From an uncultured Clostridia bacterium (lineage in GTDB: Bacteria; Aerophobota; Aerophobia; Aerophobales; B3-G15), in NCBI GenBank assembly GCA_964482715.1, contig CAYZYX010000005.1, positions 1 to 60,429 of the forward strand: a stretch of DNA of 60,429 nucleotides, written 5' to 3'. The position numbers and the translations under genes were made by a program. Shown here piece after piece: positions 284 through 22,477 of this stretch. Within the stretch, counting starts at the first letter, position 1. Each line of letters starts with the position of its first letter. The notes beneath the pieces are model-generated. The model saw nothing but the letters and a program-made list of their open reading frames with translations, searched no databases and was not told the DNA's origin.

Positions 284-1573
284 ATGCGAGAAAAGAGGTC
301 AGAAAAAATAAGGAGAATAGGTGTAGGCATCCTGGCAAGTTTTTGTGTAGTTTTATTTTCTTTTAATGCTGCATTAGGCGAAAAAATTACTCTCACCTGG
401 TACGAATGGGTTAGCCAGGAAGCAAAACCGGGCGTGATAGAGCATATGATTGAAGGATTTGAAAAAGAAAATCCCAATATTGATGTGAAAAGGATCACTG
501 ATCCGTGGCCAGTTACACACGATAAAATTATCACCATGTGGCAGGCAGGTAGGTTACCCGATGTCTTAGCTGTGAACCGAAACTGGTTATGGGAATTTGT
601 GTCACTGGGAATAATTGAACCTCTGGATCCTTACTTAGAACAAGAATCATCCGAATTTGCACAGGAGCTAAAAAATAAATTCTTTGAAGCAGCTCAGGGC
701 ATTTTTGCTGGAAAAACTTATGTGTTTCCTTTATGGGGAGGAGTTGCAGCTTTGGTTTACAATGCAGATATGTTCACCAATAAAGGTGTAACCCCACCCG
801 AGAGTTTGGACGAATTTGTCAAGATAAGTGAAAAACTCACAGATCCAGCTAAATTTCAATACGCTACTGTTTTCCCCCTGAGTGAGAAAAATGTTGCAGG
901 AGCTAATGTCTGCTGTATTGGACCCCTGTTATACTCAATGGGTGGTAAATATGTTGAGAATAAAAAGACAGCGTTCAACAAAGAGCCGGGAGTGAAAACT
1001 GTTGAGTTTTTGGTTGATATGGAAAAGAAAGGATATGCTATGCCTGGTTCCATAACCTATACTGCTGCAGATATGCGTGACATGGTTGCAGGCGGTAAGG
1101 TAGCTATGGTTTTAGATGGAGCCTGGTGTTGGGCAGTATACGGTGCTAAGGCCCCTGAACTAAATATTAAAAATGCCCCAATGCCAAAGGGCCAACGAAT
1201 AGGGACAGTCTATAATGGAGGAAACCTGGGTATTCCCAAGCAATCTCGCCATAAAAAGGAAGCATGGGAGTTTATTAAATACATGACCAGTGATGATACA
1301 ATATATTACTGGTACAAAAGTGGATATATGCCTTTAGCCAAGAAATTTGCTGATTATCCCGAATTCAAAACCGAGTATGCGGGATTTTTTGAAACATTCA
1401 AATCCACAGATAATTTCTTTCAGACAGGTTCCATTCCACAGGAAATACAGATGAATCGAATTCTTGTTTCTGCAGTCCATAAGGTATTTTTGGGGCAAAA
1501 ATCTGCCAGAGAAGCTCTGGGTGAGGCAGCTGCTGAGTATGACAAAATTCTTGAAAAAGCTTATGGAGGATAA
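284..1573 (+). CDS. Sugar ABC transporter solute-binding protein (CUT1, SBP family 1)
   Basis: SD AAGGAGG at 271-277 supports ATG 284 over the track start at 260; hydrophobic signal peptide; family-1 SBP-like segments (LPDV, ALVYNADMF, GKVAMVLDG); followed by two permeases. Confidence 0.9.
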   Translation: MREKRSEKIRRIGVGILASFCVVLFSFNAALGEKITLTWYEWVSQEAKPGVIEHMIEGFEKENPNIDVKRITDPWPVTHDKIITMWQAGRLPDVLAVNRNWLWEFVSLGIIEPLDPYLEQESSEFAQELKNKFFEAAQGIFAGKTYVFPLWGGVAALVYNADMFTNKGVTPPESLDEFVKISEKLTDPAKFQYATVFPLSEKNVAGANVCCIGPLLYSMGGKYVENKKTAFNKEPGVKTVEFLVDMEKKGYAMPGSITYTAADMRDMVAGGKVAMVLDGAWCWAVYGAKAPELNIKNAPMPKGQRIGTVYNGGNLGIPKQSRHKKEAWEFIKYMTSDDTIYYWYKSGYMPLAKKFADYPEFKTEYAGFFETFKSTDNFFQTGSIPQEIQMNRILVSAVHKVFLGQKSAREALGEAAAEYDKILEKAYGG

Positions 1574-1600
1574 TAAACTTAGAATATATTCTTGACGCTA

Positions 1601-1641
1601 TACAGAGCAGACAGATTTAATCTGCCTGCTCTGTATTTTTT
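1601..1641 (+). terminator. Stem-loop with T tract after the SBP gene (attenuator or mRNA stabiliser)
   Basis: TACAGAGCAGACAGAT/ATCTGCCTGCTCTGTA near-perfect inverted repeat followed by TTTTTT. Confidence 0.75.
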
Positions 1642-1673
1642 AAATTGTCTGGCTTGATTATAGGAAGTTCACA

Positions 1674-2558
1674 ATGAAGTATAAACCCAGTATAGTGGGC
1701 TGGCTGGCCGTAATCCCGTTGGCGATGAGTCTTATACTGGTTACTACTGTCCCTCTTTGCTACGTTTTTATATTGAGTTTCTACAGATATTACCTGCCGG
1801 AGAAAATACAGAGTTTTATCGGACTTCTCAATTATTTGGAAATTTTAAAAACACGTGAATTCTGGCATTCCTTTTCTGTGACTATTGTGTTTTGTGGATG
1901 TGTAATATTTTTTCATTTAGCCCTGGGCTTAAGTATCGCGCTCTTGCTCAATCAACGATTTCCGGGGTTGGAAAAAGTCAGAAGATTTTTTCGTGCGCTT
2001 ATTATGACTCCCTGGCTTATAGCTGGAGCAGTTGCCGCCTCCATATGGCTTGTATTATTTCATCCCTTTGGTGCTGTTAACAGCATGTTAATGAGTAGCC
2101 ACTTATTAAAAAGACCTCTGATCTGGCTGGGGGATTATCGATTAGCTCTCCCATCGGTAATAGGTCTCTACGTATGGCGAAACCTGCCGTTTTTCATAAT
2201 TATTCTTCTGGCGACAATAGAAAGCATACCCCAGGAACTTTATGAAGCAGCCAGTATTGATGGGGCGAGTAAAATAAACCAGTTTTTATATATTACATTC
2301 CCCTACGTTGTTCCAACTCTTTTGACGTTGGGTATGATAGATACAATTTGGTCTTTTATTCAATTCGATTTAATCTTCCTTACAACAGGAGGAGGACCTG
2401 CTGGTGCTACTCAAAATTTACCTTTACTGGTATACTACACCGCTTTTGAAGATTTAACATTTGGGAAAGCCGCAGCACAGGGCATATTAACTTTTTTATT
2501 TACGCTCACCTTTGCCATATTTTACATTAAACTTTCTGTTCAAAGAGAAAGTGAATGA
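1674..2558 (+). CDS. Carbohydrate ABC permease (MalF-like)
   Basis: Multiple TM segments; EAA loop ELYEAASIDGAS. Confidence 0.92.
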   Translation: MKYKPSIVGWLAVIPLAMSLILVTTVPLCYVFILSFYRYYLPEKIQSFIGLLNYLEILKTREFWHSFSVTIVFCGCVIFFHLALGLSIALLLNQRFPGLEKVRRFFRALIMTPWLIAGAVAASIWLVLFHPFGAVNSMLMSSHLLKRPLIWLGDYRLALPSVIGLYVWRNLPFFIIILLATIESIPQELYEAASIDGASKINQFLYITFPYVVPTLLTLGMIDTIWSFIQFDLIFLTTGGGPAGATQNLPLLVYYTAFEDLTFGKAAAQGILTFLFTLTFAIFYIKLSVQRESE

Positions 2559-3403
2559 GAGGGTTGAGTAAAAACTCGATGATAAATATTAAGAAATATG
2601 TGTGGCTTACTGCATGTATTGTAGTAATTACGATTATACTTCTACCGATCTTTTGGATGTGTTCAATTGCTATAAGGGAATCAGGAGAGGTTTTTACTAT
2701 TCCTCCTCATTGGATTCCAGAAAAAATCACTTTGGTTGCTTTTAAAAGAGTATTAAACGACCCCGTATTTGCTCAGGCTGTGGTAAATAGTGTATTTGTT
2801 TCGCTTTCTGTGGCTTTAATCTCGGTATTCCTGTCAGCTATAGCAGGGTATGGACTTTCTCGATTTAAATTTAAGGGTAAAAATACATTTATTGTTTACA
2901 TGCTCTCCACACAGATGATACCCCCTGTTCTTTTAGTTCTTCCCTATTACCTTATTTTACGAAAGACGGGAATCTACGACACTTACGCTGGTCTCATAAT
3001 GACTTATCTCACGTTTACTTTACCTTTTTGTGCACTCATCCTTAGAGGTTTTTTCGCTAATATACCGGTGGATTTAGACGAGGCTGCGTTAATTGATGGG
3101 TGCTCCCGATTGGGAGCCTTTTTCAGAATAATTTTGCCGTTATCTTTACCAGGAGTAATAGCTACCACTTTGTTTAGTTTCTTGGTTGCATGGAACCAGT
3201 ATCTATTTGCGCTTGTACTTACTTCGTCTGCTAATCGACGGATGCTTACTGTTCTCATTGGAGCCAAGTTGGGTCAATATAATATATTCTGGAATGACCT
3301 TATGGCTATAGATGTGATTGTTTGTTTTCCTTTAATTGCTGGCTTTTTCTTGTTACAAAAATATTTTGTAAGGGGAATTACTGCTGGGGCTATAAAAATA
3401 TAA
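2555..3403 (+). CDS. Carbohydrate ABC permease (MalG-like)
   Basis: EAA loop DLDEAALIDGCS; AWNQYL motif; 4-bp overlap with the upstream permease; start could be ATG 2579. Confidence 0.92.
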   Translation: MRGLSKNSMINIKKYVWLTACIVVITIILLPIFWMCSIAIRESGEVFTIPPHWIPEKITLVAFKRVLNDPVFAQAVVNSVFVSLSVALISVFLSAIAGYGLSRFKFKGKNTFIVYMLSTQMIPPVLLVLPYYLILRKTGIYDTYAGLIMTYLTFTLPFCALILRGFFANIPVDLDEAALIDGCSRLGAFFRIILPLSLPGVIATTLFSFLVAWNQYLFALVLTSSANRRMLTVLIGAKLGQYNIFWNDLMAIDVIVCFPLIAGFFLLQKYFVRGITAGAIKI

Positions 3404-3417
3404 TTAAGGAGAAAATG

Positions 3418-4608
3418 ATGGAAAGCCTTGCTAACCTGAAAAATATAAGATTTTATTTGCCTACAAGAGTTATTTTTGGAGAAGAAACTGTAAATGAAAT
3501 TGGCCAGGAGGCAATTCGGCTTGGAAAGAAAGCTTTGTTGGTAACCGGGAGAGAATCAATGAGAAAGCTGGGCATTACCTCCAGAGTAGAGGGTTTGCTC
3601 ATAGATTCAGGAGTCAAAGTTGTTATTTATGAAAAGGTAGAACCTGAGCCAAGTATTCAAACAGTAAATGAAGGAGGGATGCTGGCAAGATCGGAAAATT
3701 GTGATCTAATTATTGGACTGGGTGGGGGTAGTGTGCTCGATGCTTCAAAGGGGATTGCTGTTATAACCACACAGGAAGGCTCGATAACAGAAGCTATCGA
3801 GAGTAAAGACAAAAACCAGTTTTTTGCGAAAAGAAAAATACTACCGGTCCTCGCTATTCCAACCACATCAGGAACAGGAAGTGAAGTAACCCCCTTTGCT
3901 TTATTTACTGATAAGAAAGAGAGAAGAAAAAAACCATTAGGTCATCCGGTGCTGTACCCCAAATGTGCCATAATTGATCCTGATCTAATGATGGGGATGT
4001 CTCCCAAACTTGCTGCCATAACCGGTATAGATGCACTTGGCCATGCGGTCGAAGCCTATATTTCGCGAAATGCTAATTTTTTATCAGATATGTTTGCCAA
4101 AGAAGCAATACACCTGATTTCTGAAAATCTTCTTCGAGCTATAAGAGATAGAGGTGACCGAGAGGCTCAGAAAAATATGGCTCTGGCCAGTACGCTGGCT
4201 GGAATAGCAAATGCCCAAGCTGGTACAGTAGCAGGTCATGCTATGGCAGTTGCTCTTGGAGGATATTTGGGTATTTCTCATGGAATAGCTGTAGGCTTAT
4301 TTTTACCCTTCGTATTGGATCTCAATAAATCAGTATGTCCGGATAAAATAGCTCAGGTTACGAAAATGTTTATAAAGGATACACAGGAAATTTCCATAAA
4401 TGAACGGATTAAAAAATGTGTAGAGATTTTTCAAACTTTTGTTAGAGATAGCGGGTTACCCACTCACTTAGAAATGAAAATTGACGAAGACCAGATTATG
4501 AGGATTGCAAAGGATGCTTTCACCAAACCGGCTATGAGTTATAATCCCGCTGAATTAAAATTAAGTGACGTAGTAGCTGTAATTAAAAATGTATTCTCTA
4601 AAGCATGA
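3418..4608 (+). CDS. Iron-containing (family III) alcohol dehydrogenase
   Basis: GLGGGSVLD, PTTSGTGSEVT, DALGHAVE and SHG motifs; SD AAGGAG at 3406-3411 favours ATG 3415/3418 over the track start at 3322. Confidence 0.9.
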   Translation: MESLANLKNIRFYLPTRVIFGEETVNEIGQEAIRLGKKALLVTGRESMRKLGITSRVEGLLIDSGVKVVIYEKVEPEPSIQTVNEGGMLARSENCDLIIGLGGGSVLDASKGIAVITTQEGSITEAIESKDKNQFFAKRKILPVLAIPTTSGTGSEVTPFALFTDKKERRKKPLGHPVLYPKCAIIDPDLMMGMSPKLAAITGIDALGHAVEAYISRNANFLSDMFAKEAIHLISENLLRAIRDRGDREAQKNMALASTLAGIANAQAGTVAGHAMAVALGGYLGISHGIAVGLFLPFVLDLNKSVCPDKIAQVTKMFIKDTQEISINERIKKCVEIFQTFVRDSGLPTHLEMKIDEDQIMRIAKDAFTKPAMSYNPAELKLSDVVAVIKNVFSKA

Positions 4609-4681
4609 AAAGCACAGGTTAACGATCCCATTTTGTTTTTGTTTTCAGAATATCTCCCCTTTTATGCTTTTTATCTATTAG

Positions 4682-4805
4682 TTAAATAGCACTTGCCAGT
4701 CTTTTACTAATCTGGATGGCACATTCATCTTTCATCCTGATGACTTAAAACTTCAGGTATAAATCCCGCTCCAATATCCTGGATTTTGTGAGGTCCCGAA
4801 GAGGG
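4682..4805 (-). pseudogene. cysK: Degraded cysteine synthase (CysK-family) fragment
   Basis: Minus strand reads PSSGPHKIQDIGAGFIPEVL (CysK motif GPHKIQGIGAGFIP), then after a frameshift/deletion IRMKDECAIQISKRLA, matching the next CysK helix; no start and no full ORF. Confidence 0.8.
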
Positions 4806-5124
4806 AAATCTCATGAATCTTTTAGAAGTTTTTATCATGAGAAAAGCTGTGGCCCAGCCAAGGGAGAAGACAAATGTCAAAAGATAGCCATTTCCAGAGA
4901 TTTTTTTGAAATCGAAATTTATCCCGGTGTACTAAATAATAAATGAGCCATCTTGTGAAGGAACTATTACAAAAAATTGCTAATAAAATTTTCGTTGATT
5001 TTACTGTGATACTTATATTTTGTTGACATTTATTATTGTAACATTATTTTCTTTACCTTTTATATAGGGAAATTTCCGAAATGACTTATTCAATTTTTGT
5101 TAATTAAATATAGATTTTAGAAGT

Positions 5125-5152: not shown

Positions 5153-5164
5153 TTACCAGTTAGA

Positions 5165-5175: not shown

Positions 5176-5202
5176 GTATACCAAAAGAAGACTTAATCTG
5201 AA

Positions 5203-5898
5203 ATGTTTGAAAAAGTCCAAACTAAAAAAGTTTATATGGAGATAGTGGAGCAAATACAAAAGTTGATTAAAGAAGGAAAATTGAAGCCTGGGGACAAACT
5301 CCCTCCTGAACGCATCCTGGCGAAAAAACTCGGGGTATCCCGCCCTCCATTAAGAGAAGCTTTGTCAGCACTGGAGATACTTGGGATAATTGAATGTAGA
5401 GGGGGAAGAGGCAATATAATTAAAAACAGTTTTGATCCTGATGTTCTTAAACAGCGATTCAAGGAATTGGAGAGTGAACAGAGCCCGTTTGAGCTTTTGG
5501 AAGCAAGAAAGGTAGTGGAAATGCAGATTGCCGGTCTTGCAGCAAAAAAAGCACTAAAGGAAGATATAGTCGCTATTGAAGAATCCTTAAGAAAGATGAA
5601 AGATTCTCTTTCCAATATCACCAAAATCTTGGAATACGATAGAGAGTTTCATGTTAATGTAGCCAGAGCTGCTCACAACAGTGTACTTTTTTCCATGATG
5701 AATTATTTAGCCGATGGCTTAAAAGAAAAACTATGGGTAAACCTGAAAGAGAAATGTTACAATCTTCCAGGACGTCCCGAGAAGTATCTTCGGGAACATA
5801 TTGAGATCTTTAATGCCATAAAGAACAAGGATAGTAAAGGCGCCTCCAGGAAAATGTACACTCATCTGGCTGGTGTGGAAAAGGACTTACTCGGTTAG
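5203..5898 (+). CDS. GntR family, FadR subfamily transcriptional regulator
   Basis: wHTH LKPGDKLPPERILAKKLGVSRPPLREAL; FCD domain DREFH...AAHNSVL...EHIEIFNAI. Confidence 0.93.
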   Translation: MFEKVQTKKVYMEIVEQIQKLIKEGKLKPGDKLPPERILAKKLGVSRPPLREALSALEILGIIECRGGRGNIIKNSFDPDVLKQRFKELESEQSPFELLEARKVVEMQIAGLAAKKALKEDIVAIEESLRKMKDSLSNITKILEYDREFHVNVARAAHNSVLFSMMNYLADGLKEKLWVNLKEKCYNLPGRPEKYLREHIEIFNAIKNKDSKGASRKMYTHLAGVEKDLLG

Positions 5899-6031: not shown

Positions 6032-6871
6032 GTGAGTTACCATTCTGAAAGTCTAATCGGTGGTTTGCACAAAATTGCAAGACAGGTACGGGTTGATGTA
6101 ATTGAAATGATTCATAGAAGAGAAGCTGGACATCCAGGTGGTTCTCTATCCATTGTAGAAATTCTGGTTGCTCTTTATTTTCATCATTTAAGAATTAAGC
6201 CCGAAGATCCTTCTTGGCCAGAGCGAGATCGATTCATTTTAAGTAAAGGTCATGGATGTTCAGCTCTTTATGCTACACTGGCAAGAAGAGGGTTTTTCCC
6301 TCCAGAAAAGCTTGAAACATGGGGTCATATAGGTTCGTTTTTACAGGGACATCCTGATAGATTGAAAACTCCAGGAGTGGAGATGAGTTCGGGATTTCTG
6401 GGGCACGGGCTTGCCATTGGTGTTGGTTTGGCTTTAGCTGCTCGGATTAGAGGTTTTTCCTATCAAACATATGTTTTATTGGGTGATGGTGAATGCCAGG
6501 CGGGAATTGTATGGGAAGGGGCAATGGCTGCAGGAAAATACAAATTATCAAATTTAACTGTTATTGTTGATTACAATGATGTTCAACTGGATGGTATTGT
6601 ACATGAAATTATGCCTCTTGAACCTTTCATTGATAAATGGTGCTCATTTAATTTTGAGGTGCTACAAATCAACGGCCATAACATGAGAGAAATTCTTGAT
6701 TCTCTGGACATGGCCCTCGAGATTCATGAGAAGCCCGTAGTTATAATAGCTCGTACCACCAAAGGAAAGGGCGTCTCCTATATGGAGAATAAATCTATCT
6801 GGCATGGAAGAGCTCCAACTGAAGAAGAGTTGAAGATAGCAAAAACTGAACTTTTGAAGGAGGAAAATTGA
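6032..6871 (+). CDS. Transketolase, N-terminal (ThDP-binding) subunit
   Basis: GHPGGSLS, LSKGH, LQGHP, ThDP motif GDGE...N, WHG; GTG start. Confidence 0.92.
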   Translation: MSYHSESLIGGLHKIARQVRVDVIEMIHRREAGHPGGSLSIVEILVALYFHHLRIKPEDPSWPERDRFILSKGHGCSALYATLARRGFFPPEKLETWGHIGSFLQGHPDRLKTPGVEMSSGFLGHGLAIGVGLALAARIRGFSYQTYVLLGDGECQAGIVWEGAMAAGKYKLSNLTVIVDYNDVQLDGIVHEIMPLEPFIDKWCSFNFEVLQINGHNMREILDSLDMALEIHEKPVVIIARTTKGKGVSYMENKSIWHGRAPTEEELKIAKTELLKEEN

Positions 6872-7818
6872 TGCAGAAAGTTTCTATTCGAGAAGCTTTT
6901 GGAAAAACATTGGTTAAGATTGGAGCCCAAAATCCAGATGTTGTGGTATTAGTTGCAGATGTTTCCTCTTCACTTATGACAGATTATTTTGGAGAAAAGT
7001 TTCCCGATCGTTTTTTTAATCTGGGAATTCAGGAGGCTGGAATGGTTGATGTTGCGGTTGGTTTTGCACTTGCTGGGATGATTCCTTTCACAAATACATT
7101 TGCTGGTTTGTATCTTCGAACGGTTGAACAGATAAGAACCTGTGTCGCTTATGCCAGAACTAACGTTAAAATTATCGGGGGATACTGTGGATTATCGGAC
7201 TTCAAAGATGGACCAACTCATCATTCTATTGTAGATATTGCTGTTATGAGGGCTCTGCCCAATATGGTGGTTATAAGTCCCGCTGATGCTACAGAAGTCG
7301 AGAAGATTTTACCCCTTGTGGCAGAATACGATGGACCGTGTTATGTTCGTCTAAGCAGGGCAGATTTGCCTGTTGTTTTTGATGATAACCATCAGGTAGA
7401 GATTGGTAAAGGGATCGTCATCAAAGAGGGTGAAGATGTTGCTCTCATTGGTACCGGGGTTATGACCTGGCGCTGTCTTGAAGCGGCAAAAATCTTGTCA
7501 GGTGATGGCATAGATTGTACAGTTATAAATATCCATACCCTTAAGCCATTAGATGAGTCTCTCATAATAGAGACTGCAGAGAAAACGGGAGCTATAGTTA
7601 CCGCTGAGGAACATTCAATCATAGGTGGATTGGGAAGTGCGGTAGCAGAAGTTCTCGCAAATAATTGCCCTGTTGTTGTTGAACGAGTTGGAATTGCTGA
7701 TAGATTTACCGAAACTTCCTTAGATTTTGAATCTTTGCTTGATCATTATGGTATGAGTGTTCAGGATATAGTTGGAGCGGCTAAACGAGCTGTTCATAGA
7801 AAACAAAAAGTTAAATGA
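6868..7818 (+). CDS. Transketolase, C-terminal (pyrimidine-binding) subunit
   Basis: NLGIQE, DGPTHHS, YVRLSR, TLKPLD, EEHSIIGGLGSAV. Confidence 0.92.
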   Translation: MMQKVSIREAFGKTLVKIGAQNPDVVVLVADVSSSLMTDYFGEKFPDRFFNLGIQEAGMVDVAVGFALAGMIPFTNTFAGLYLRTVEQIRTCVAYARTNVKIIGGYCGLSDFKDGPTHHSIVDIAVMRALPNMVVISPADATEVEKILPLVAEYDGPCYVRLSRADLPVVFDDNHQVEIGKGIVIKEGEDVALIGTGVMTWRCLEAAKILSGDGIDCTVINIHTLKPLDESLIIETAEKTGAIVTAEEHSIIGGLGSAVAEVLANNCPVVVERVGIADRFTETSLDFESLLDHYGMSVQDIVGAAKRAVHRKQKVK

Positions 7819-13113: not shown

Positions 13114-13182
13114 TTTACCTGTTTGTAAAGAAAGAACAAAAATAGATCAACCAATTGCCCAGTATATGCAAGGAGTTTATTG

Positions 13183-14446: not shown

Positions 14447-15892
14447 ATGGGTAGAAGTTTTTCATACAAGGTTTTTTTAGGTTTGGGGTTAATGTTGATT
14501 TTGTTGATGATTATTGGTCAAACAGTTTTTGCAGCAGGGGAAAAACCCTGGGAAAAAATCGAATGGAATAAGCCAGTACCTGCTCCTGAAAGGTTATCTG
14601 CCGATGAATACATTCTTCCAGAAGGGTGGCAACAGGCAGTGAAAGGTGTTGAGAGGATACTTCACTTCAATGCCGGAAGTATGGAACACGATCCAGGTAC
14701 TTTGGCTAATTTTAAACTTTTTGAGAAATTAACCGGAATAAAGGTCAATTATGTTGAGGTATCCGATCAAGTTCTCCTGCAAAAGACGATATCTGCTCTT
14801 GTAAGTGGTGATCCTAATGTTACTTCCATGTGTGTTTCAGAGCCAGCCTATTCCATGCAACATCTAATAGCTGCAAATTGGCTTGAAAAATGGGATGTAG
14901 TATGGAGTCCTGAAGTTCAGAAAATTTATCCACCAGGATTAGTACAGTTGCTTAAAGGACCAGATGGCCACTTTTATGGAACGGTTGATACTCAAAAATC
15001 AGCCATTATGTACGCAAGAGTTTCTTGGCTTAAAGCAGCAGGTGTGGATATTCCTGATACCTGGCAAGATGTAATTATTGCTGCTAAGAAGTGCCGGGAG
15101 TGGGCTTTACAAAATCTTGGTCCAACTTACTGGGGTATTGCCTTTCCAGGTGATCACTATCTACTTCAGCATTTTCAGTGTGGGGTTTACTCTCAGGGTG
15201 GGAGGTTAATGCAAGATGGTAAGATTAATTTATTGACTCCCGAATTCAAAAATACATGGAAGATGTTTGTGGATTTCATCAAGGAAGGTTCAGCTCCTGA
15301 GGCAATTCTTGGATGGACGTGGAATGATTACCAGCAGGCTTTTGCAATGGGAAAAGTAGCCATATGTGATGAGGGACTCAATACTAACATGGTATTTTTT
15401 AAAGATCCAAATAGATCCCCTGGGCTTCAGAAAGATGTGTTTGGTAATCCTGTGAAGGGTGGGGACTGGATTGCTTTTCCACCACCAAAGTGGAGTGACG
15501 AAATGCCGGAAAGTTACAGAGGAGCAGCTCCAACTAATTTTTCGACATTTGTTATCAATAGATTTGCTCCTGACAATGCTAAAGCAGCAGCAATGTTACT
15601 GGGTGAGGTTAGAATGAGTAAGCAAGGTGGAGTGAATGAGCTTTTGATAGAGGGTAATTCTCCGTTTTTGCCTACGGTGTTTGAAGATCCTGAGGTCCTG
15701 AAAAAGGTAGACTATGTTGATGTACGAAAGATATGTCTGCAGAATGCTGTGCTGGAAGTTTTTCCTCCCGGTGCTCAGCATATGATGGACATTTTGCTTG
15801 AATATTTTGGAAAAGCAGTCACTGGAGAGATGGATACCATGGAAGCTCTGGAGCAGGCCCAAAAGGAACTGGATGAGCTACTGTACTACTAA
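14447..15892 (+). CDS. Sugar ABC solute-binding protein with an N-terminal Trp/Pro-rich extension
   Basis: Signal peptide ending TVFA; DIPDTWQD and FAMGKVA family-1 SBP segments; precedes two permeases. Confidence 0.85.
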   Translation: MGRSFSYKVFLGLGLMLILLMIIGQTVFAAGEKPWEKIEWNKPVPAPERLSADEYILPEGWQQAVKGVERILHFNAGSMEHDPGTLANFKLFEKLTGIKVNYVEVSDQVLLQKTISALVSGDPNVTSMCVSEPAYSMQHLIAANWLEKWDVVWSPEVQKIYPPGLVQLLKGPDGHFYGTVDTQKSAIMYARVSWLKAAGVDIPDTWQDVIIAAKKCREWALQNLGPTYWGIAFPGDHYLLQHFQCGVYSQGGRLMQDGKINLLTPEFKNTWKMFVDFIKEGSAPEAILGWTWNDYQQAFAMGKVAICDEGLNTNMVFFKDPNRSPGLQKDVFGNPVKGGDWIAFPPPKWSDEMPESYRGAAPTNFSTFVINRFAPDNAKAAAMLLGEVRMSKQGGVNELLIEGNSPFLPTVFEDPEVLKKVDYVDVRKICLQNAVLEVFPPGAQHMMDILLEYFGKAVTGEMDTMEALEQAQKELDELLYY

Positions 15893-16020: not shown

Positions 16021-16893
16021 ATGAAAATCTCTAACAGTAAATTCGGTTTGTTTCTTTCTCTACCAGGAATAGTACTTTTGACACTTTTGATAATTGGTCC
16101 TTTGATTTTTCTTGTTTACACAAGCTTTCTTCGATATGATAATATACGTCCGGTGGTATTTTGTGGCCTTAAGAACTATAAGTATCTTTTCCGTCAACGA
16201 GTTTTCTGGTTGAGTTTCAAAAATACTCTGGTTTTCTGTGGAGGAACCACACTTTTAACTTTTGTCTTAAGTCTGCTTCTTGCACACTGTTTATCGCGAA
16301 TTACCAGAGGATCGAGTATTTTCAGGTCTTTTGCAATGTTTCCCTGGGCAGTTCCACTTGTTGTTTCGGGTTTCATGTGGAAACAGATGTTTAATCCCTC
16401 TTTTGGTGTTATCAATGATGTTTTGTTAAGGACAGGAATAATAAAAAATCCTCTTGATATATTCGGTAATCCCACTCTGGCCATGATAGGGGTTATTCTT
16501 GCCGATTCATGGACACGTATACCTTTTATGACGATAATTATCCTTGCAGGGCTGGAGAGTATTTCACCCACCATATATGAGGCAGCCAAAACAGATGGAG
16601 CAGATGTATTTCAGACGTTTGTTCATATATCCCTGCCTCTTAACAGAAAAGCCATGCTAACAGGTCTTCTTATTACCAGTATATTTTCTTTTCGCACAAT
16701 TGATGCAATTTTTTCCCTGACTTTTGGTGGTCCAGCAAAGGCTACATATGTTTTTGGGTTTTACATTCTTGATCTTATCTATAGATATTTCAATTTTGGT
16801 GTTGCAGCTTCACTGAGTATATTGATGATTATTTTCTTGATAGGAATTGGAAGTATTTTTGTTTACAACATCCTTAAAGGTGGCAAATTATGA
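16021..16893 (+). CDS. Carbohydrate ABC permease (MalF-like)
   Basis: EAA loop TIYEAAKTDGA; SD AGGAGGGG supports ATG 16021 (the track start at 15955 lies inside the hairpin). Confidence 0.92.
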   Translation: MKISNSKFGLFLSLPGIVLLTLLIIGPLIFLVYTSFLRYDNIRPVVFCGLKNYKYLFRQRVFWLSFKNTLVFCGGTTLLTFVLSLLLAHCLSRITRGSSIFRSFAMFPWAVPLVVSGFMWKQMFNPSFGVINDVLLRTGIIKNPLDIFGNPTLAMIGVILADSWTRIPFMTIIILAGLESISPTIYEAAKTDGADVFQTFVHISLPLNRKAMLTGLLITSIFSFRTIDAIFSLTFGGPAKATYVFGFYILDLIYRYFNFGVAASLSILMIIFLIGIGSIFVYNILKGGKL

Positions 16894-17741
16894 AGAAAAT
16901 AAGAGAGTTCCTGGCAACTGTACTGGAACATAAGGCCACTCCCTATGTAGGAGCTTCGGTGATCCTTTTTATTATTTTTATACCTATACTGTGGACCCTG
17001 ATTACTTCATTTAAGACCCTGGAAGAGTCTTTCTTTTCTCCACCAACCTATATTCCTAAGACTCCTACCCTTGAGGCATACAGAGAGGTAATTTTTAATT
17101 CCCCTGTCCCTCTCTATATTTTGAATTCTGTAATTTATGCTACCAGTACAACATTTTGTGTTTTAGTTGGAAGTGTCTTTACCGCCTATGGGTTGAGTAG
17201 ATACCCATATAAGGGAAGTGGTATGGTTCTTGGTTCTTTTCTTGCCAGTCGCATAATTCCACCTCTTAGTCTTTTACTTCCCTTCTACATTATTTATAAA
17301 ATACTGGGACTGATAGATTCCAAGCTGGCAGTTGTAATATTTACTGTCTACCTCTGCTATCCACTATCAGTATGGATATTAAAAACTTTTTTTGATGATT
17401 ATCCGCAGGATCTGATGGATGCTGCCCTTATCGATGGATGTTCACGTTTGGGTGTACTGTTTAGAGTTGTTATGCCTGGTATTGCTGTCGGCATAGCTGC
17501 CGTGGCTATCATCTCTTTTCTGTGGACGTGGCAGGAATTTTTATCTCCCTATTTGTTTCTTAATAGTGACCAGAACAAGCCCATAACCGTGGGTGTATAT
17601 TACTTTGTTGGAGATGAACTAACTTACTGGAATTCTATATCTGCTGCAGCAATTTTTGCAAGCATTCCCGGAATTGTATTTTTCTTAATTGCTCAGAAGT
17701 TTATTATAAAGGGATTAACACTGGGTGGAGTGAAGGGATAA
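16890..17741 (+). CDS. Carbohydrate ABC permease (MalG-like)
   Basis: DLMDAALIDGCS, WTWQEFL. Confidence 0.92.
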   Translation: MKKIREFLATVLEHKATPYVGASVILFIIFIPILWTLITSFKTLEESFFSPPTYIPKTPTLEAYREVIFNSPVPLYILNSVIYATSTTFCVLVGSVFTAYGLSRYPYKGSGMVLGSFLASRIIPPLSLLLPFYIIYKILGLIDSKLAVVIFTVYLCYPLSVWILKTFFDDYPQDLMDAALIDGCSRLGVLFRVVMPGIAVGIAAVAIISFLWTWQEFLSPYLFLNSDQNKPITVGVYYFVGDELTYWNSISAAAIFASIPGIVFFLIAQKFIIKGLTLGGVKG

Positions 17742-17780: not shown

Positions 17781-18917
17781 ATGCGGTCAAAAGAGTTACT
17801 TTTAAAGACGTTAAATCATGAGGAACCCGACCGAGTTCCTGTTGATCTTGGGAGTACCAATGTTACCACCATCACTTGGCCGGCATATGTAAATCTTTGT
17901 AAATATTTAGGGTTAGATAAAGAAAAAGAAATCACGGTTGTAGATAGAATACAGCAAATCGTTGTACCAGATGAAGAGGTTTTGCTTCGGTTAAAAGTTG
18001 ATACGAGAAGTGTTTGGTTGCCAAAGCCAGGCGCAAGGAAGGTAGAATTGGAAGAAGAGGATGCCTATATGGATGATTGGGGTATTGTAAGAAAAAAAGT
18101 AGCTGGAAGCTGGTATTATGACGTTATTAAATTTCCTCTGGAGGATGCAAATAGTATAGAAGACCTGTTGAATTATAAATGGCCCAATCCGAATAGTCTG
18201 AAAAAATTTGAAAAAGTAGAAAATGAAGCCAAAAAGTTGTATTCGGAGGGTGTTTACCCTCTTGTCATTGATCCCACAGGATCTGTTCCCTTTCAAAATT
18301 CCCAACTTTTAAGGGGCTTTGGTACTTTTTTAATGGATTTAGTACTGAATAAAAGTTTTGCCGAGTTTCTCATGGATAAACTGGTTGAATTTCAGATAAA
18401 ACGGCTTGAGAAATTGCTTGAAGAAGTTGGAAATTATATAAATGTCATTAAGATTGCTGACGACCTGGGCACACAGAAAGGTCCTCTTATTTCCCCCGAA
18501 CTTTATAGAAATTTAATAAAACCAAGACATAGACAGCTCATCCAGTTCATCAAGAAAAAATCAAAAGCTAAAATCTTATTTCATAGTGACGGGGGAATTT
18601 ACCCTTTTATTGAGGATTTGATTGATATAGGTGTAGATATTCTTAATCCAGTTCAGGTTTCTGCTCATGGCATGGATACCAAAAGGCTTAAGAGAGAGTT
18701 CGGAAAGAGTCTTTGCTTTTGGGGAGGGATTGACACCCAGAGAACATTACCCTATGGAAGTATAAAAGATGTTGAGGATGAGGTAAAAAGACGGATAGAT
18801 GAGTTAGCTCCGGGTGGAGGATATGTACTTGCTCCTGGACACAATATTCAGCCTGATGTTCCACCCGAAAATATTGTTGCCATGTACCAGACAGCCATTG
18901 AATATGGCAAAAAATAG
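17781..18917 (+). CDS. Uroporphyrinogen decarboxylase/MtaA-CmuA-fold protein
   Basis: EEPDRVPVDLG, ADDLGTQ, FHSDG, GVDILNPVQ, FWGGIDTQ, APGHNIQ. Confidence 0.9.
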   Translation: MRSKELLLKTLNHEEPDRVPVDLGSTNVTTITWPAYVNLCKYLGLDKEKEITVVDRIQQIVVPDEEVLLRLKVDTRSVWLPKPGARKVELEEEDAYMDDWGIVRKKVAGSWYYDVIKFPLEDANSIEDLLNYKWPNPNSLKKFEKVENEAKKLYSEGVYPLVIDPTGSVPFQNSQLLRGFGTFLMDLVLNKSFAEFLMDKLVEFQIKRLEKLLEEVGNYINVIKIADDLGTQKGPLISPELYRNLIKPRHRQLIQFIKKKSKAKILFHSDGGIYPFIEDLIDIGVDILNPVQVSAHGMDTKRLKREFGKSLCFWGGIDTQRTLPYGSIKDVEDEVKRRIDELAPGGGYVLAPGHNIQPDVPPENIVAMYQTAIEYGKK

Positions 18918-18932: not shown

Positions 18933-19739
18933 ATGAAGATAGGATTAGCTATAGCACCCGCAAATGCTTTGCCTTCTGCCTTCGTTGTTTTTCGAATGGA
19001 TCTGGGCCTGGGAATAAAAAAAGCTGCAGAGCTTGGTTATGATGGTGTTGAATTAGCCATTGCTGATGCCACAGAAGTGAATGTGACTCAAGTGAAGAAA
19101 CTTATTAAAAAATACAATTTGCAGCTTCCCATAATCTCTACCGGAAGGGTTTTTGCTGAGAAAAAGGTCTCATTTACGCATTTTGATGATAATATACGCA
19201 ACGAAGCAATACGGACAGTTAAAGGTATAATAGAACTTGCTGCTAATTTTGGAGCAGATGTGAATGTTGGTAGGGTAAGAGGAAATTTGCCTCCTGGTGA
19301 AGAAGAAAAAGCCAGAGAAAGATTTATTTATGCCATGAGAGAATGTGCTGATTTTTCAAAAAGTTTCGGAAGACAGCTTTTACTTGAACCTGTAAATCGT
19401 TATGAGACTAATTTTATCAACAATCTGAAGGAGGGAATGGATATTATTAAAGAAATCCAGAGGGATAATGTGAAGCTTATGCCTGATATTTATCACATGA
19501 ATATAGAAGATGCATCTATTGAAGGAAGTTTAGAGGAGGCACGAGATATAATATCCTACATCCATTTCGCAGATAGTAATCGCCTGGCACCTGGCCAGGG
19601 TCATATTGATTTTAAGAGCATAATAGACACCCTTAGAAAGATTGGTTATGACGGTTTTATTACTGTAGAGATTCTGGCCAAACCAGACCCGGACAGAGCA
19701 GCCAAACTGGCTATTGATTATCTTAGAAATTTCATATAG
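18933..19739 (+). CDS. Xylose-isomerase-like TIM-barrel epimerase, resembling Thermotoga 5-keto-L-gluconate epimerase (IolO)
   Basis: GYDGVE, EPVNRYET, DIYHMNIE, HFADSNRLAPGQGH, VE; overall similarity to the remembered TM0416/IolO sequence. Confidence 0.8.
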   Translation: MKIGLAIAPANALPSAFVVFRMDLGLGIKKAAELGYDGVELAIADATEVNVTQVKKLIKKYNLQLPIISTGRVFAEKKVSFTHFDDNIRNEAIRTVKGIIELAANFGADVNVGRVRGNLPPGEEEKARERFIYAMRECADFSKSFGRQLLLEPVNRYETNFINNLKEGMDIIKEIQRDNVKLMPDIYHMNIEDASIEGSLEEARDIISYIHFADSNRLAPGQGHIDFKSIIDTLRKIGYDGFITVEILAKPDPDRAAKLAIDYLRNFI

Positions 19740-19757
19740 TTATTCCGGAGGACTGAT

Positions 19758-21083
19758 ATGAATTATAAAGATCGAGCTAAAAAAATGCTTCATGACTGGA
19801 AGAAGGAAAATTATGCCTTTGGTATGGGTTCTTTGCAAAAGATTGGAGATTTTGCAGCCCGGGAAGGCAGCTCTACAATGCTGGTGGTGAGTGGATTAGG
19901 AAAAGAAAAGTGGGTTGAACCATATGTTAGCGAGATTAAGTCCTCTATTGAGAAAAAGAGTGTCAAAATTTTGGATATAATAAGCGGAGCGAGGGCTAAT
20001 ACTCCCCGGGAAGATGTGTACAGAATTGCCAACCAGATAGGAAAAAAAAATCCTGACAGTGTTATCCCATTGGGTGGAGGAAGTACCATAGATGCAGTGA
20101 AGGCAGCAGATGTACTGGCTATACTGGATCCTGATGACGTGGAAAATTACTTTGGTAGCGGGTTGGTTCAGGAAAGATTGAATAAGGAAGGGAAAAAACT
20201 TATTCCGATTATAGCTGTACAGACTGCAGCAAGTTCTGGAGCTCATCTTACCAAGTATTCCAATGTTACTGACCCGGTAACAGGGCAGAAAAAATTGATA
20301 ATTGACGAGGCAATTGTTCCTCCTCGAGCAGTTTTTGATTATAAAACAACCATAGGGGCTCCATATGCGATCACTGCAGATGGTGCCCTTGATGGGATTG
20401 CCCATTGTTTAGAAGTTGTGTACGGAGCTACCGAAAAGCCTTTTTTTGAGATAGCGATGCAAATAGCTGAGGTAGGTGTCAGTCTAATTGTGAACAACCT
20501 TCCCAGGGCTATAGATGATCCTTACGATGAAGAAGCAAGAGTTGGACTGGGTCTTGGTACAGACCTTGGAGGATATGCTATAATGGTTGGAGGGACAAAT
20601 TACGGACATCTTTTCAGTTTTTCTGTAGTAAATAAGCTACCTCATGGACGAGCGTGTGCTATTGTAAATCCTTATGCCACAGTATTTTTTGCTCCGGCAA
20701 TTCAAAATCAATTAAAAATGGTAGGTAGGATTCTAAAAGCAGCAGGTTATATTAAAGATGATCCAGAGAAATATCAGGGGAAAGACCTGGGTATCCTTGT
20801 AGCCGAAGGAATGATAGAATTTTCTAAGAGCATTAATTTTCCTACCACCTTTGGTGAAGTTGGAGTGAATGACGAAGATAAAAAGAGGATTCTAACTGCT
20901 GCAAAAAATCCTCAACTCTGGAGTAAACTGGAGCAGGCACCTGTTTCATTAATTGCAAGAGACAAAGGAGGAGAGGTTGACAAAGAAAAAACAGAGGAGA
21001 ATATAGATCTCTATATGGGTGCACTTTTGGATGCTATCATCGTTGGAGATTTTAACAAAATAAAGATGATGCCGGAAAAATAG
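19758..21083 (+). CDS. Divergent iron-containing alcohol dehydrogenase
   Basis: LGGGSTID, TAASSG, DGIAHCLE, GH...PHG. Confidence 0.85.
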   Translation: MNYKDRAKKMLHDWKKENYAFGMGSLQKIGDFAAREGSSTMLVVSGLGKEKWVEPYVSEIKSSIEKKSVKILDIISGARANTPREDVYRIANQIGKKNPDSVIPLGGGSTIDAVKAADVLAILDPDDVENYFGSGLVQERLNKEGKKLIPIIAVQTAASSGAHLTKYSNVTDPVTGQKKLIIDEAIVPPRAVFDYKTTIGAPYAITADGALDGIAHCLEVVYGATEKPFFEIAMQIAEVGVSLIVNNLPRAIDDPYDEEARVGLGLGTDLGGYAIMVGGTNYGHLFSFSVVNKLPHGRACAIVNPYATVFFAPAIQNQLKMVGRILKAAGYIKDDPEKYQGKDLGILVAEGMIEFSKSINFPTTFGEVGVNDEDKKRILTAAKNPQLWSKLEQAPVSLIARDKGGEVDKEKTEENIDLYMGALLDAIIVGDFNKIKMMPEK

Positions 21084-21088
21084 GAGTA

Positions 21089-22477
21089 ATGAACGGTACG
21101 AGCTGGAAAGAAATAGATATTGAATACGGGAAAGAATACATAACTGTTAAGGTGCCTCCTTATTGTGAGATATTGGAGAATAAAAGTGCACCGCCTCTTG
21201 CACGTCCTCGGGAGAAAATAGAGGAGGTATTATCCAATCCTGTTGGGACAGAATCGATGGAGAAACTTATTGGTTCACTTAAAAAGGATCCTTCAAAGAT
21301 AAAAGTTGCTATAACTGTATCGGACAATACAAGACCTGTTCCTTACAATGGAGAAAGTGAGCAGGGAATACTCCTTCCGCTTTTAAGAAGATTAGAAAAA
21401 GCAAGGATTAAAAAAGGGAATATAAAAATTATTGTAGGCACAGGAACTCATCTTCCAACATCATCCGAATGGAAAAAAGAGGCCTTTGGTGAGTTTATTT
21501 TGAATAACTACGAAATAATAGATCACGATTGCAATGCCCTTGACCTTATTTCCATAGGAAGAATAAGAGGAGTCGAGGTTAAAATAAATAAAGAATTTAT
21601 AACTGCTGATATTCGTATCGCCACGGGTCTTGTAGAGCCCCACTTTATGGCTGGAGTTTCAGGTGGAAGAAAAGCGATATGTCCCGGACTTGTCAACCTG
21701 GAGGCTACTTACGTCTTTCATGGTGTGGATTTCATGGATCATCCTAACGCCACAAATATGGTCTTAGTCAATAATCCCTGTCATGAGTTTGCCCTGGAGG
21801 TTGCTAAAAGAGCAAAAGTAGATTTTATTGTAAATTGTACTATAAACGGTAATGGTGATTTAACTGGGGTTTTTGCCGGTCATTTCGAGAAAGCCCATCT
21901 TCAGGCTGTGCGTATGTTAAAGGATACCTGTGTGGTACACTGTTCTCATGAGTATGATATAGTACTGACCCAGGGTGGAAAGGTTGCTGTTAATCATTAC
22001 CAGGCTGCTAAGGCAGCCTATGCAACCATTCCTATAGTTAAAAAGGGAGGAATTGTTATTCTGGTTGCTCATAACAGCGACAAAAATCCTGTGGGCAAGG
22101 ATGAGTACAGGAGAGTTTTGAGAGTTTTAAAGGAGAAAGGACCTGGTAAGTTTACCGAGTATATTAAGAGTAAAAACTGGCGGTTTGTACCTGATCAGTG
22201 GCAGGTCCAAAAGTGGGATCAGTTTTTTAAGAAAATTGGTTTCTTTGATAACCTTATTTATTGCACCACAAATATTCCTCCTCATGAACTGGAAGAACTT
22301 CCCGGTAAAAGTGGCTATCTCTTTGCCAAAGAGGAAGCTTTAACCTGTGATAGGATGGTACAAAATGCCATATATTATGCTGTAGACAATTTTAGGCAAA
22401 AGCTAAAGAGAGAGCCTGCAATGGCCTTCATAAAGGAAGGTCCCTATACAGTTCCTCTACTTAACCTGCCTGCTTAG
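21089..22477 (+). CDS. LarA-family nickel-pincer-dependent racemase/epimerase
   Basis: DNTRPVP, GTGTH, EPHFMAGVSGGRKA, NHYQAAK (includes both candidate NPN-binding lysines). Confidence 0.88.
   Translation: MNGTSWKEIDIEYGKEYITVKVPPYCEILENKSAPPLARPREKIEEVLSNPVGTESMEKLIGSLKKDPSKIKVAITVSDNTRPVPYNGESEQGILLPLLRRLEKARIKKGNIKIIVGTGTHLPTSSEWKKEAFGEFILNNYEIIDHDCNALDLISIGRIRGVEVKINKEFITADIRIATGLVEPHFMAGVSGGRKAICPGLVNLEATYVFHGVDFMDHPNATNMVLVNNPCHEFALEVAKRAKVDFIVNCTINGNGDLTGVFAGHFEKAHLQAVRMLKDTCVVHCSHEYDIVLTQGGKVAVNHYQAAKAAYATIPIVKKGGIVILVAHNSDKNPVGKDEYRRVLRVLKEKGPGKFTEYIKSKNWRFVPDQWQVQKWDQFFKKIGFFDNLIYCTTNIPPHELEELPGKSGYLFAKEEALTCDRMVQNAIYYAVDNFRQKLKREPAMAFIKEGPYTVPLLNLPA

Follow-up and report, generated by a model that had tools for sequence, protein, structure and literature searches.

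Positions 284-22477 of contig CAYZYX010000005.1, from an uncultured bacterium of the Aerophobota, hold a cluster of genes that we read as a composite catabolic locus. A widespread lower module, consisting of a FucI-fold isomerase, an IolO-like epimerase and a split transketolase, often with an iron-type alcohol dehydrogenase (Fe-ADH2) and a LarA-family enzyme, is joined here to a clade-specific upper module that comprises an M20 deacylase, a class-III aminotransferase (AT), a Gfo/Idh/MocA oxidoreductase (Gfo), two UroD-fold proteins (UroD1 and UroD2) and a CUT1-type importer. The gene content, the intact catalytic residues, the co-conservation and the modular structure are observed directly, and our best account of the locus is kinase-free cleavage, by transketolase or transaldolase, of a sugar carrying its own charged group. 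More specifically, an N-acylated amino-sugar acid would be deacylated, deaminated and then cleaved unphosphorylated by transketolase, a version that we favor tentatively while giving it somewhat less than an even chance. The window, as used below, is the whole 60-kb stretch of DNA that was analysed; the cluster is the part under study, and the remaining 38 kb were read from gene tables.

Conservation and modular structure of the cluster

Open reading frame (ORF) listing and Pfam scans identified 19 intact genes within 284-22477, all on the plus strand (Table 1), and by the gene coordinates about 94% of the region is coding. The first-pass annotation of this DNA had counted 18 co-oriented intact genes; the families, orientation and intactness that it gave were all recovered, while the count omitted the GntR/FCD regulator. 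The sole large non-coding gap (4609-5202, 594 bp) separates Fe-ADH1 from this regulator and contains the strongest sigma-70-like site in the region (5125-5152, TTGACT-16-TATAAT); promoter and terminator scans gave site counts not above shuffled expectation.

A further two metagenomic lineages also carry the 15 genes from the GntR regulator to the LarA-like gene, with protein identities of 57-85%. In locus L003, from the same metagenome, they stand in the window's order at 67-85% identity. In L085 and L086, from other samples, all 15 are present at 57-81% identity, but the order is GntR, AT, M20, UroD1, solute-binding protein 2 (SBP2), two permeases, UroD2, TIM barrel (the IolO-like gene), Gfo, the transketolase N- and C-terminal subunits (TK-N, TK-C), ADH2, LarA, FucI. 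Thus AT and M20, which lie between Gfo/FucI and UroD1 in the window, are near the front in L085. The regulator orthologue (66%) heads L085, the SBP2 orthologues in L003, L085 and L086 are 77-85% identical to the window's protein, and Gfo is conserved in L003 and L085. SBP2 is called as two ORFs in L085 (214 + 228 aa) and is intact in the sister contig L086. Retention of the same gene set despite shuffled order is a classical sign of functional coupling. Because the 15 genes recur in two other lineages, once in shuffled order, their association is more than chance and the cluster is not the random mosaic that the first-pass annotation had wished to see checked for by gene neighborhood.

The first four genes behave differently. 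No SBP1 orthologue adjoins the conserved set in L003, L085 or L086, and neither the first ATP-binding cassette (ABC) system nor Fe-ADH1 (284-4608) was seen beside the conserved copies. L085 begins 750 bp upstream of its regulator, without ABC-1 or Fe-ADH1, and L003 has a different permease directly before its transketolase. Because ABC-1 and Fe-ADH1 were not seen beside the L003 and L085/L086 copies, we treat 284-4608 as possibly separate from the unit. The single 18-gene unit originally described is accordingly replaced by a segment set apart by the 594-bp gap and a remainder that looks like the fusion of two modules.

To examine the lower module on its own, the FucI-like protein was used as an anchor, giving 80 loci with one genome per species, against which all 19 proteins of the cluster were scored; the counts for these proteins refer to the 61 loci that have 8 kb or more of flanking sequence. 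TK-N lies beside the FucI-like gene in 35 of the 61, TK-C in 33 and the IolO-like TIM barrel in 28, with all three present in 24. Orthologues of Fe-ADH2 (41-50% identity) follow the transketolase and TIM-barrel genes in 10 loci, and a LarA homologue is found in seven. M20, AT, UroD or SBP2 at 35% identity or above was found in none of the 61. The loci span Acidobacteriota, Planctomycetota, Bacillota, Chloroflexota, Aminicenantes, Brocadiaceae and others. Recurrent neighbors include an RpiB-family isomerase (16 loci), major facilitator superfamily (MFS) transporters (12), TRAP transporters (about 10), M24 hydrolases (10), ribose-type ABC systems (7) and sodium-solute symporters (SSF; 4), together with M19 dipeptidases and a D-2-hydroxyacid dehydrogenase, the last of which follows the module in the TRAP-type loci. 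A kinase recurs only twice, as an FGGY gene that is divergent upstream of the module (L007 and L013).

Two further arrangements bear on how the module might work. In L059 and L076 a transaldolase (PF00923) takes the place of the transketolase, next to genes for a class-III aminotransferase, a TIM barrel and the FucI-like isomerase. In L013 (Acidobacteriota) and L061 (an uncultured metagenome-assembled genome, MAG) the genes run from a TonB-type outer-membrane barrel through MFS, FucI-like, TIM, TK-N, TK-C, two M19 genes and ADH2 to LarA; L061 stops there, while L013 continues into an M24 hydrolase. Amide hydrolases (the M19 pair and M24) thus recur in the form of the module that has ADH2 and LarA. 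From these patterns the locus is a composite, its lower part shared among many phyla and its upper part confined to the window's clade.

Table 1. Genes of the cluster, with coordinates in the window and supporting matches
Feature	Coordinates	Strand	Evidence
CUT1-type solute-binding protein 1 (SBP1)	284..1573	+	Pfam SBP_bac_8/SBP_bac_1; ATG at 284 after AAGGAGG
ABC permease 1a	1674..2558	+	Pfam BPD_transp_1
ABC permease 1b	2555..3403	+	Pfam BPD_transp_1
Fe-ADH1, ordinary group-III alcohol/aldehyde oxidoreductase	3415..4608	+	Pfam Fe-ADH + ADH_Fe_C
GntR/FCD (FadR-type) regulator, opening the co-conserved unit	5203..5898	+	Pfam GntR + FCD
Transketolase N-terminal (thiamine diphosphate (ThDP)-binding) subunit, TK-N	6032..6871	+	Pfam Transketolase_N; NF004559, 277 bits
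Transketolase C-terminal (pyrimidine-binding) subunit, TK-C	6868..7818	+	Transket_pyr + Transketolase_C; NF004559, 272 bits
Gfo/Idh/MocA NAD(P) oxidoreductase	7835..8908	+	Pfam
Class-III (GABA-AT-like) pyridoxal-phosphate aminotransferase (AT)	8995..10362	+	Pfam Aminotran_3, 318 bits
FucI-fold Mn-dependent aldose-ketose isomerase, short, 467 aa	10394..11797	+	Pfam Fucose_iso_N1/N2/C
M20 ArgE/DapE-family deacylase	11803..13113	+	Pfam Peptidase_M20 + M20_dimer (PF01546 + PF07687); TIGR01910
UroD-fold protein 1 (UroD1), putative His/His/Glu metal site	13180..14322	+	Pfam URO-D
CUT1-type solute-binding protein 2 (SBP2), importer of the conserved unit	14447..15892	+	Pfam SBP_bac_8/1
ABC permease 2a	16021..16893 (GTG start at 15955 possible)	+	BPD_transp_1; source contig 290 aa
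ABC permease 2b	16890..17741	+	Pfam BPD_transp_1
UroD-fold protein 2 (UroD2), putative His/Asp/His metal site	17781..18917	+	Pfam URO-D
IolO-like xylose-isomerase-fold TIM-barrel ketose epimerase (AP_endonuc_2)	18933..19739	+	NF041099, 284 bits (cut-off 300)
Fe-ADH2, divergent 441-aa iron-type dehydrogenase	19758..21083	+	Pfam Fe-ADH, 99 bits
LarA-family nickel-pincer 2-hydroxyacid racemase/epimerase	21089..22477	+	Pfam Lar_N + LarA_C

Enzymes of the two modules

The catalysts look competent as judged by their residues, with the FucI manganese ligands, the ThDP motif, the aminotransferase lysine, the M20 motifs and the LarA set all in place. The manganese ligands E337/D361/H528 of Escherichia coli FucI correspond to E293/D317/H437 in the FucI-like protein and are invariant in 13 relatives. 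The start of TK-C overlaps the stop of TK-N, which carries the GDG...N ThDP motif from residue 151. The aminotransferase has its Schiff-base lysine at position 296, and its best PDB matches are archaeal class-III amino-acid racemases (1e-68) and GABA aminotransferase (1e-59). In the M20 protein the metal-site motifs are present and both the catalytic and the dimerisation domains were found; it is also the one protein to pass a curated cut-off, that of the ArgE/DapE subfamily model TIGR01910 (278.4 bits against 217.6). The known substrates of ArgE/DapE-type M20 enzymes are N-acyl alpha-amino acids.

The LarA-like protein matches 9eid (3e-53) and 5huq (5e-44) in the PDB. Aligned to 5huq, the Lactobacillus plantarum LarA residues D72, R75, H108, H174, K184, H200, Y294, Q295 and K298 correspond to D79, R82, H121, H185, K195, H211, Y304, Q305 and K308, so that the catalytic histidine pair, the lysine tether of the cofactor, the histidine ligand of the nickel and the four residues that grip the carboxylate of the substrate (Arg, Tyr, Gln and Lys) are all retained. 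None of the LarA-homologue equivalog models in NCBIfam is passed (best 264 against 460), and the C-terminal 80 or so residues extend past the part that aligns to solved LarA structures.

The remaining redox enzymes, the epimerase and the regulator are placed less closely. For Fe-ADH1 the top NCBIfam scores all fall under cut-off (GbsB 296/550, FucO 258/537, SarD 214/700), and we consider this protein a candidate terminal aldehyde reductase; no model scores above 107 bits on Fe-ADH2. The Gfo protein, which would be the ketoreductase of a deamination trio with M20 and AT, scores best with IolG (170/355), UDP-GlcNAc 3-dehydrogenase (143/450) and levoglucosan dehydrogenase (122/650). The TIM barrel scores 284.3 bits over its full length on the 5-keto-L-gluconate epimerase IolO model NF041099, for which the cut-off is 300. 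The nearest named families of the GntR/FCD regulator are NanR, LldR, UxuR, PdhR, ExuR and GlcC, all carboxylic-acid sensors. SBP2 has no NCBIfam match, and PDB sequence searches gave no close characterised relative for the FucI-like protein, UroD1 or UroD2.

The two UroD-fold proteins, only 24% identical to each other, share a fold with MtaA and HemE, and share the positions of the metal ligands with MtaA. An AlphaFold model of UroD2 (pLDDT 92.7) returned only MtaA, HemE and MetE in a fold search, the nearest being MtaA (4ay7) and HemE at TM scores of 0.65-0.72. The zinc ligands of MtaA, H240/C242/C319, align to H268/D270/H354 of UroD2. Among 119 relatives of UroD2, His268 is invariant, His354 is conserved in 98%, and position 270 is Cys in 95 sequences and Asp in 24, the latter including all close relatives of UroD2; among 121 relatives of UroD1, H269-S-H271-G is invariant and E351 is conserved in 89%. 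Because His/His/Glu (UroD1) and His/Asp/His (UroD2) occupy the positions of the His/Cys/Cys zinc site of MtaA, both proteins look like metalloenzymes with harder ligand sets than that of a thiol methyltransferase. The MtaA/CmuA model TIGR01463 scores only 54-63 bits on the pair (cut-off 235), and the HemE model TIGR01464 only 25-28 (cut-off 303). Neither protein is thus an MtaA or a HemE, and with HemE they have just the fold in common.

MtaA and CmuA act with a partner corrinoid protein, whereas the window, L003 and L085 have no B12-binding gene, nor was one found in any of the three full copies of the cluster. We considered the possibility that the UroD pair is a corrinoid-dependent O-demethylase and did not adopt it, as the full clusters lack a corrinoid protein and the Cys ligand is replaced in the window's subclade. 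Part of the UroD2 family may still be corrinoid-linked methyltransferases. In L087, an Aerophobetes MAG, a 53% relative of UroD2 with the Cys variant lies near an FGGY kinase and a ribose-type ABC system, and also near two MttB-family genes, a corrinoid protein and a RACo activase.

Other neighborhoods of UroD relatives point to amino sugars. A 48% relative of UroD1 and a second UroD gene lie between a CUT1 importer and genes for an AGE-like epimerase, a NagC-like ROK protein, NagA and NagB, with this NagA passing its cut-off (280 against 226). A 55% relative of UroD1 is found with a second UroD, a LarA homologue, an Amidohydro_2 protein and a SIS-domain protein, and a 64% UroD relative with CUT1 importer and Gfo genes. 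In L101 and L102 a UroD1-type cluster is interrupted by insertion elements (DDE_3 and IS240-type) and by a truncated Gfo gene.

A proposed route and its alternatives

The first-pass annotation reported no sugar kinase, aldolase or glycosidase, and this stands: Pfam and NCBIfam scans of the 19 genes gave no match to sugar kinase, aldolase or glycoside hydrolase families, the gene tables of the other 38 kb list none either, and no kinase occurs in any of the three full copies of the cluster. Against this background we infer a route, including the order of its steps, its substrate and product, and the role of every enzyme, as follows. SBP2 and permeases 2a and 2b would import the substrate, UroD1 and UroD2 would remove or rearrange a substituent, and the M20 deacylase would free the amine. 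The aminotransferase could then convert the amino carbon to a ketone, which the Gfo enzyme would reduce to a hydroxyl; whatever the substrate, M20, AT and Gfo together would amount to amino-sugar biosynthesis in reverse. The LarA-type epimerase would invert the 2-hydroxyl of the resulting sugar acid, Fe-ADH2 would oxidise the penultimate hydroxyl to give a 5-keto-aldonate (hex-2-ulosuronate), and the IolO-like TIM barrel would adjust the stereochemistry of the carbon beside the keto carbon. The split transketolase might next move a C2 ketol unit to glyceraldehyde-3-phosphate, giving xylulose-5-phosphate and a C4 aldehyde-acid, which the FucI-fold isomerase would convert from aldehyde to ketose for a second transketolase cut. 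The C2 acid or aldehyde left over, glyoxylate in this scheme, would be reduced by Fe-ADH1 or another enzyme, or assimilated. No step would have to spend ATP on phosphorylating the substrate, because phosphate enters with the acceptor.

There is a published precedent for such chemistry in the sulfoglycolytic transketolase (sulfo-TK) pathway, in which SqvD is a FucI-fold isomerase, SqwGH a split transketolase, SqwI an RpiB-type isomerase and SqwF an iron-type alcohol dehydrogenase. SqwGH twice moves a C2 ketol onto glyceraldehyde-3-phosphate, with SqwI acting between the rounds, and SqwF reduces the leftover sulfoacetaldehyde; the pathway is free of kinases, with the sulfonate standing in for a phosphate and the product phosphate coming from the acceptor (PMC12890257, PMC9594981). 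The statement in the first-pass annotation that typical transketolase routes include a kinase overlooks this pathway. Sulfo-TK, found in strict anaerobes (Clostridium sp. MSTE9 and relatives), resembles the window's lower module in having a FucI-fold isomerase, a split transketolase and an iron-type dehydrogenase and no kinase. The transketolase halves beside the isomerase are matched in the window by Pfam and NCBIfam hits and the GDG...N motif, the comparison with SqwGH being one of architecture, not sequence. The RpiB family of SqwI (PF02502) is absent from the window and present in 16 of the related loci. In the sister pathway (sulfo-TAL), likewise published and kinase-free, SqvD acts with the transaldolase SqvA, and the transaldolase loci L059 and L076 give the FucI-like family the same transketolase/transaldolase duality; the window itself carries a transketolase, not a transaldolase, and the likeness to SqvA and SqvD is one of gene families only.

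The first-pass annotation proposed that the substrate carries an anionic handle (phosphate, sulfonate or carboxylate) or is processed unphosphorylated. We can narrow this: the substrate most probably carries a carboxylate, as an acylamino aldonic or uronic acid, and six independent observations make this the likeliest handle, with a neutral or amino substrate still a rival. The LarA residues that hold a substrate carboxylate are all kept, and the characterised LarA homologues all act on 2-hydroxy acids, sugar acids included (PMC11770544). The TIM barrel nearly reaches the cut-off for IolO, a 5-keto-L-gluconate 4-epimerase that acts on 5-keto-aldonates (PMC12632266). The regulator's nearest named families sense organic acids, the M20 protein passes the ArgE/DapE model, and importers of the TRAP and MFS types accompany related lower modules. 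TRAP transporters typically need a carboxylate or sulfonate. The 2-hydroxyacid dehydrogenase in the TRAP-type loci could reduce a glyoxylate-type end product. For the M20 step there is a precedent, by analogy and not as evidence for the window's substrate, in OngB, an N-acyl-amino-acid-type deacylase recruited to the acylamino aldonic acid GlcNAc1A (PMC12017989).

Several points weigh against the route as drawn. No enzyme of the cluster reaches an NCBIfam equivalog cut-off, so that every specificity named above is our reading of the sequences, and UroD1 and UroD2 lack an assigned step beyond the general one given to them. CUT1 importers mostly carry neutral oligosaccharides and sugars. Beyond the clade, SBP2 has its closest orthologue (70%) in L093, a locus that also encodes an FGGY kinase, a class II aldolase, a TIM barrel, and M20 and UroD proteins; this is a phosphorylating variant, and the compound taken up could therefore be non-acidic. 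The nickel-pincer cofactor genes larB, larC and larE do not occur in the window, and no RNA run holding the locus was found. The transketolase could be a housekeeping enzyme lying here by chance, although its linkage to the FucI-like gene in 35 loci argues otherwise. In the minus-strand stretch 52320-53560, a PP-loop ORF (52320-53066) considered as a possible LarE was rejected as NadE (274 bits against a cut-off of 255); the 165-aa ORF beside it resembles a HIT-family ATP adenylyltransferase.

The strongest rival, which we nevertheless consider unlikely, is a neutral sugar with no anionic group: once deacylated and transaminated, a 6-deoxy or amino-deoxy hexose would be isomerised by the FucI-like protein, epimerised by the TIM barrel and cut by the transketolase to C2 units. 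An ending that we think no more probable would have acetaldehyde, lactaldehyde or glycolaldehyde reduced by the iron-type dehydrogenases, with LarA racemising a by-product such as lactate or glycerate. CUT1, ribose-type ABC or SSF importers near many lower-module loci would suit such a sugar, as would the resemblance of Fe-ADH1 to lactaldehyde reductase (258/537), the action of FucI proper on neutral deoxy sugars, the preference of some LarA homologues for glycerate or lactate (PMC11770544), and the phosphorylation of an intermediate in the L093 variant. The TRAP importers and 2-hydroxyacid dehydrogenase of the relatives, however, fit it poorly, as do the FCD type of the regulator and the likeness of the TIM barrel to IolO, whose substrates are keto-sugar acids; moreover, LarA directly follows ADH2 inside the conserved module and is not beside a lactate gene.

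It is also conceivable, if distinctly unlikely, that a kinase encoded elsewhere phosphorylates the ketose and that the transketolase uses a phosphorylated donor, on the model of apiose catabolism. The D-apiose AptAB route, a kinase-containing example given in the first-pass annotation, which Carter and colleagues reportedly described in 2018, is said to use a split transketolase and to need an apulose kinase. As in the window, that split transketolase adjoins a xylose-isomerase-fold TIM barrel in a sugar cluster; unlike the window, the apiose system requires a ketose kinase (AplK), of which there is none in the window's cluster or its two conserved copies, and genes of the FucI-like, LarA, M20, aminotransferase and UroD families are missing from it. 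FGGY kinases do lie near UroD2 relatives (L087, L089), in the L093 locus of the SBP2 orthologue and, in L007 and L013, upstream of the lower module in divergent orientation, and only 60 kb of this genome are visible. On the other hand, most of the 61 lower-module loci have no recurrent kinase neighbor, the three full copies and the 38 kb downstream have no kinase at all, and the sulfo-TK precedent shows that a kinase is unnecessary.

A true sulfoglycolytic variant, in which an amino- or acylamino-sulfosugar would pass through sulfo-TK chemistry to sulfoacetaldehyde and isethionate, we regard as very unlikely. The named NCBIfam matches of the FucI-like protein, besides FucI, include the sulfoquinovose isomerase SftI, both iron-type dehydrogenases weakly match the sulfoacetaldehyde reductase model, and the architecture of FucI-fold isomerase, split transketolase and iron-type dehydrogenase is that of sulfo-TK. 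The scores are nonetheless far from the thresholds: the FucI-like protein, which keeps the fold and the manganese ligands, has 79.8 bits against 700 on NF048012 (SftI) and is not an orthologue of SqvD/SftI, and the SarD model gives 214 bits to Fe-ADH1 and 94 to Fe-ADH2, against 700. The window's gene tables list no sulfoquinovosidase, no SqvB mutarotase and no TauE/SafE-type sulfonate exporter, and sulfoglycolysis makes no use of LarA or IolO-like enzymes. Because of these low SftI and SarD scores and the lack of a sulfoquinovosidase or sulfonate exporter, the lower module works like sulfo-TK without being sulfo-TK; relative to that pathway the window adds the IolO-like, LarA, deacylase, aminotransferase, Gfo and two UroD-fold proteins, and its handle is probably a carboxylate and not a sulfonate.

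That there is no single pathway, only two or three unrelated operons side by side (ABC-1/ADH1, an amino-compound module and a sugar module), would agree with the 594-bp gap and its promoter-like site before GntR, with the absence of ABC-1/ADH1 from the conserved set and with the independent occurrence of the lower module in many phyla, but is just as improbable as the sulfonate variant given that both modules stay together in three lineages even where their order is reshuffled and interleaved.

Other described systems resemble the proposed carboxylate route in single steps. The chemistry implied for the TIM barrel, epimerisation next to the keto group of a 5-keto-aldonate, is the IolO/LguG step of Thermotoga inositol and Luteolibacter L-glucose catabolism (PMC12632266), although those pathways continue through a reductase, a dehydratase, a 2-keto-3-deoxygluconate (KDG) kinase and an aldolase where the window has a transketolase. 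A Thermotoga-type inositol pathway does not fit, with Gfo at 170 against 355 on IolG and no second dehydrogenase or hydrolase candidate recognised. The oxidised-chitin system with OngB and OngC (PMC9537276, PMC12017989) matches the scheme in uptake, N-deacetylation of a 2-acylamino aldonic acid and subsequent removal of nitrogen; OngB, however, belongs to the amidohydrolase superfamily and not to M20, a deaminase removes the nitrogen in place of a class-III aminotransferase, and KDG kinase and aldolase take over the product. The catalytic, cofactor-tethering and carboxylate-binding residues of the window's LarA-like protein are common to the LarA superfamily, known members of which include the GntE sugar-acid 2-epimerases (PMC11770544); a position beside a transketolase is a context undescribed for that superfamily. 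Weak matches to LgdA and BT_2158/9 raised the possibility that Gfo and the TIM barrel form an oxidative glycoside-cleavage pair (for levoglucosan, a C-glycoside or a 3-keto-glycoside), which we did not adopt, since the TIM barrel travels with the transketolase and is IolO-like.

In the literature, searches turned up no relevant description of a pathway made of these genes. Within the libraries and papers searched, no characterised pathway matches it, and the widespread FucI-like/TIM/transketolase module itself seems to be undescribed. The failure of the first-pass annotation to recognise the set is borne out by the equivalog scores, the PDB searches and the literature alike.

Surroundings of the cluster and significance

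As the first-pass annotation stated, the cluster lies between tRNA genes. A 5'-cut tRNA at the window edge (1-72), with an encoded CCA end, was found with Rfam (69 bits) and missed by ARAGORN; visual inspection of the anticodon loop (CTCTTAA) identifies it as tRNA-Lys(CTT). Downstream, ARAGORN places tRNA-Gly at 22570 and tRNA-Leu at 22794. A genomic island between the tRNAs was considered and rejected, as GC content is flat (0.36-0.41 inside the cluster, 0.38-0.44 outside), the cluster has no integrase or repeats, and the other copies lie in different contexts. Mechanically called TTG or GTG starts run into the upstream genes at four places (3322/3415, 7772/7835, 13180/13183 and 15955/16021); the source contigs give shorter products there (396, 357, 379 and 290 aa), and the downstream ATG is the better fit.

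Each of the two importers in the cluster consists of an SBP_bac_1/8 binding protein and two BPD_transp_1 permeases, and no ATPase gene for either is found in the cluster or the rest of the window. CUT1 carbohydrate importers work with an MsmK-type ATPase, for which a shared gene at another place in the genome is usual. The other 38 kb hold tig, clpPX, V-type ATPase subunits, glycosyltransferases, LpxB, aromatic amino-acid (aro) genes, a third CUT1 system, NadE and an RND pump. The third CUT1 system (47957-52032 region, minus strand) comprises a binding protein of 511 aa (50497-52032) together with a pair of permeases (48713-50428), and is adjoined by a sucrose-6-phosphate-phosphatase-type HAD hydrolase (47957-48739, plus strand). 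The stretches 24262-37339 and 53921-60108 include V-type ATPase A, B and D genes, directly after clpP-clpX, as well as genes for LpxB, a Wzy-like protein, an OEP/RND efflux system and a MarR regulator. Because LpxB, Wzy-like, OEP/RND and V-type ATPase genes are present, the host is a diderm with a V-type ATPase. The window sequence occurs in hydrothermal-vent and marine-sediment metagenomes.

A bolder version of the carboxylate reading, which we find doubtful and yet worth stating, makes the lower module an undescribed and widespread "carboxy-" counterpart of sulfo-TK/TAL, a kinase-free glycolysis that takes keto-sugar acids to xylulose-5-phosphate and glyoxylate, and makes the UroD families new corrinoid-free metal enzymes; in this joint and equally doubtful form the UroD families would act first, on modified amino sugars from sediment necromass. 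If the proposed route is correct, phosphorylation-independent transketolase/transaldolase cleavage, to date known for sulfoquinovose, would prove to be a strategy of general reach, used by anaerobes in many phyla for sugars that already carry a charged group. The LarA-family nickel enzyme would gain a physiological role in sugar-acid catabolism, and a role would be found for two large uncharacterised UroD-fold families now annotated "uroporphyrinogen decarboxylase," one of which has thousands of members in uncultured anaerobes. Pathway-prediction tools keyed to kinases and aldolases would overlook such a module, and the way in which sugar-acid and amino-sugar turnover is read from the genomes of sediment bacteria would change.

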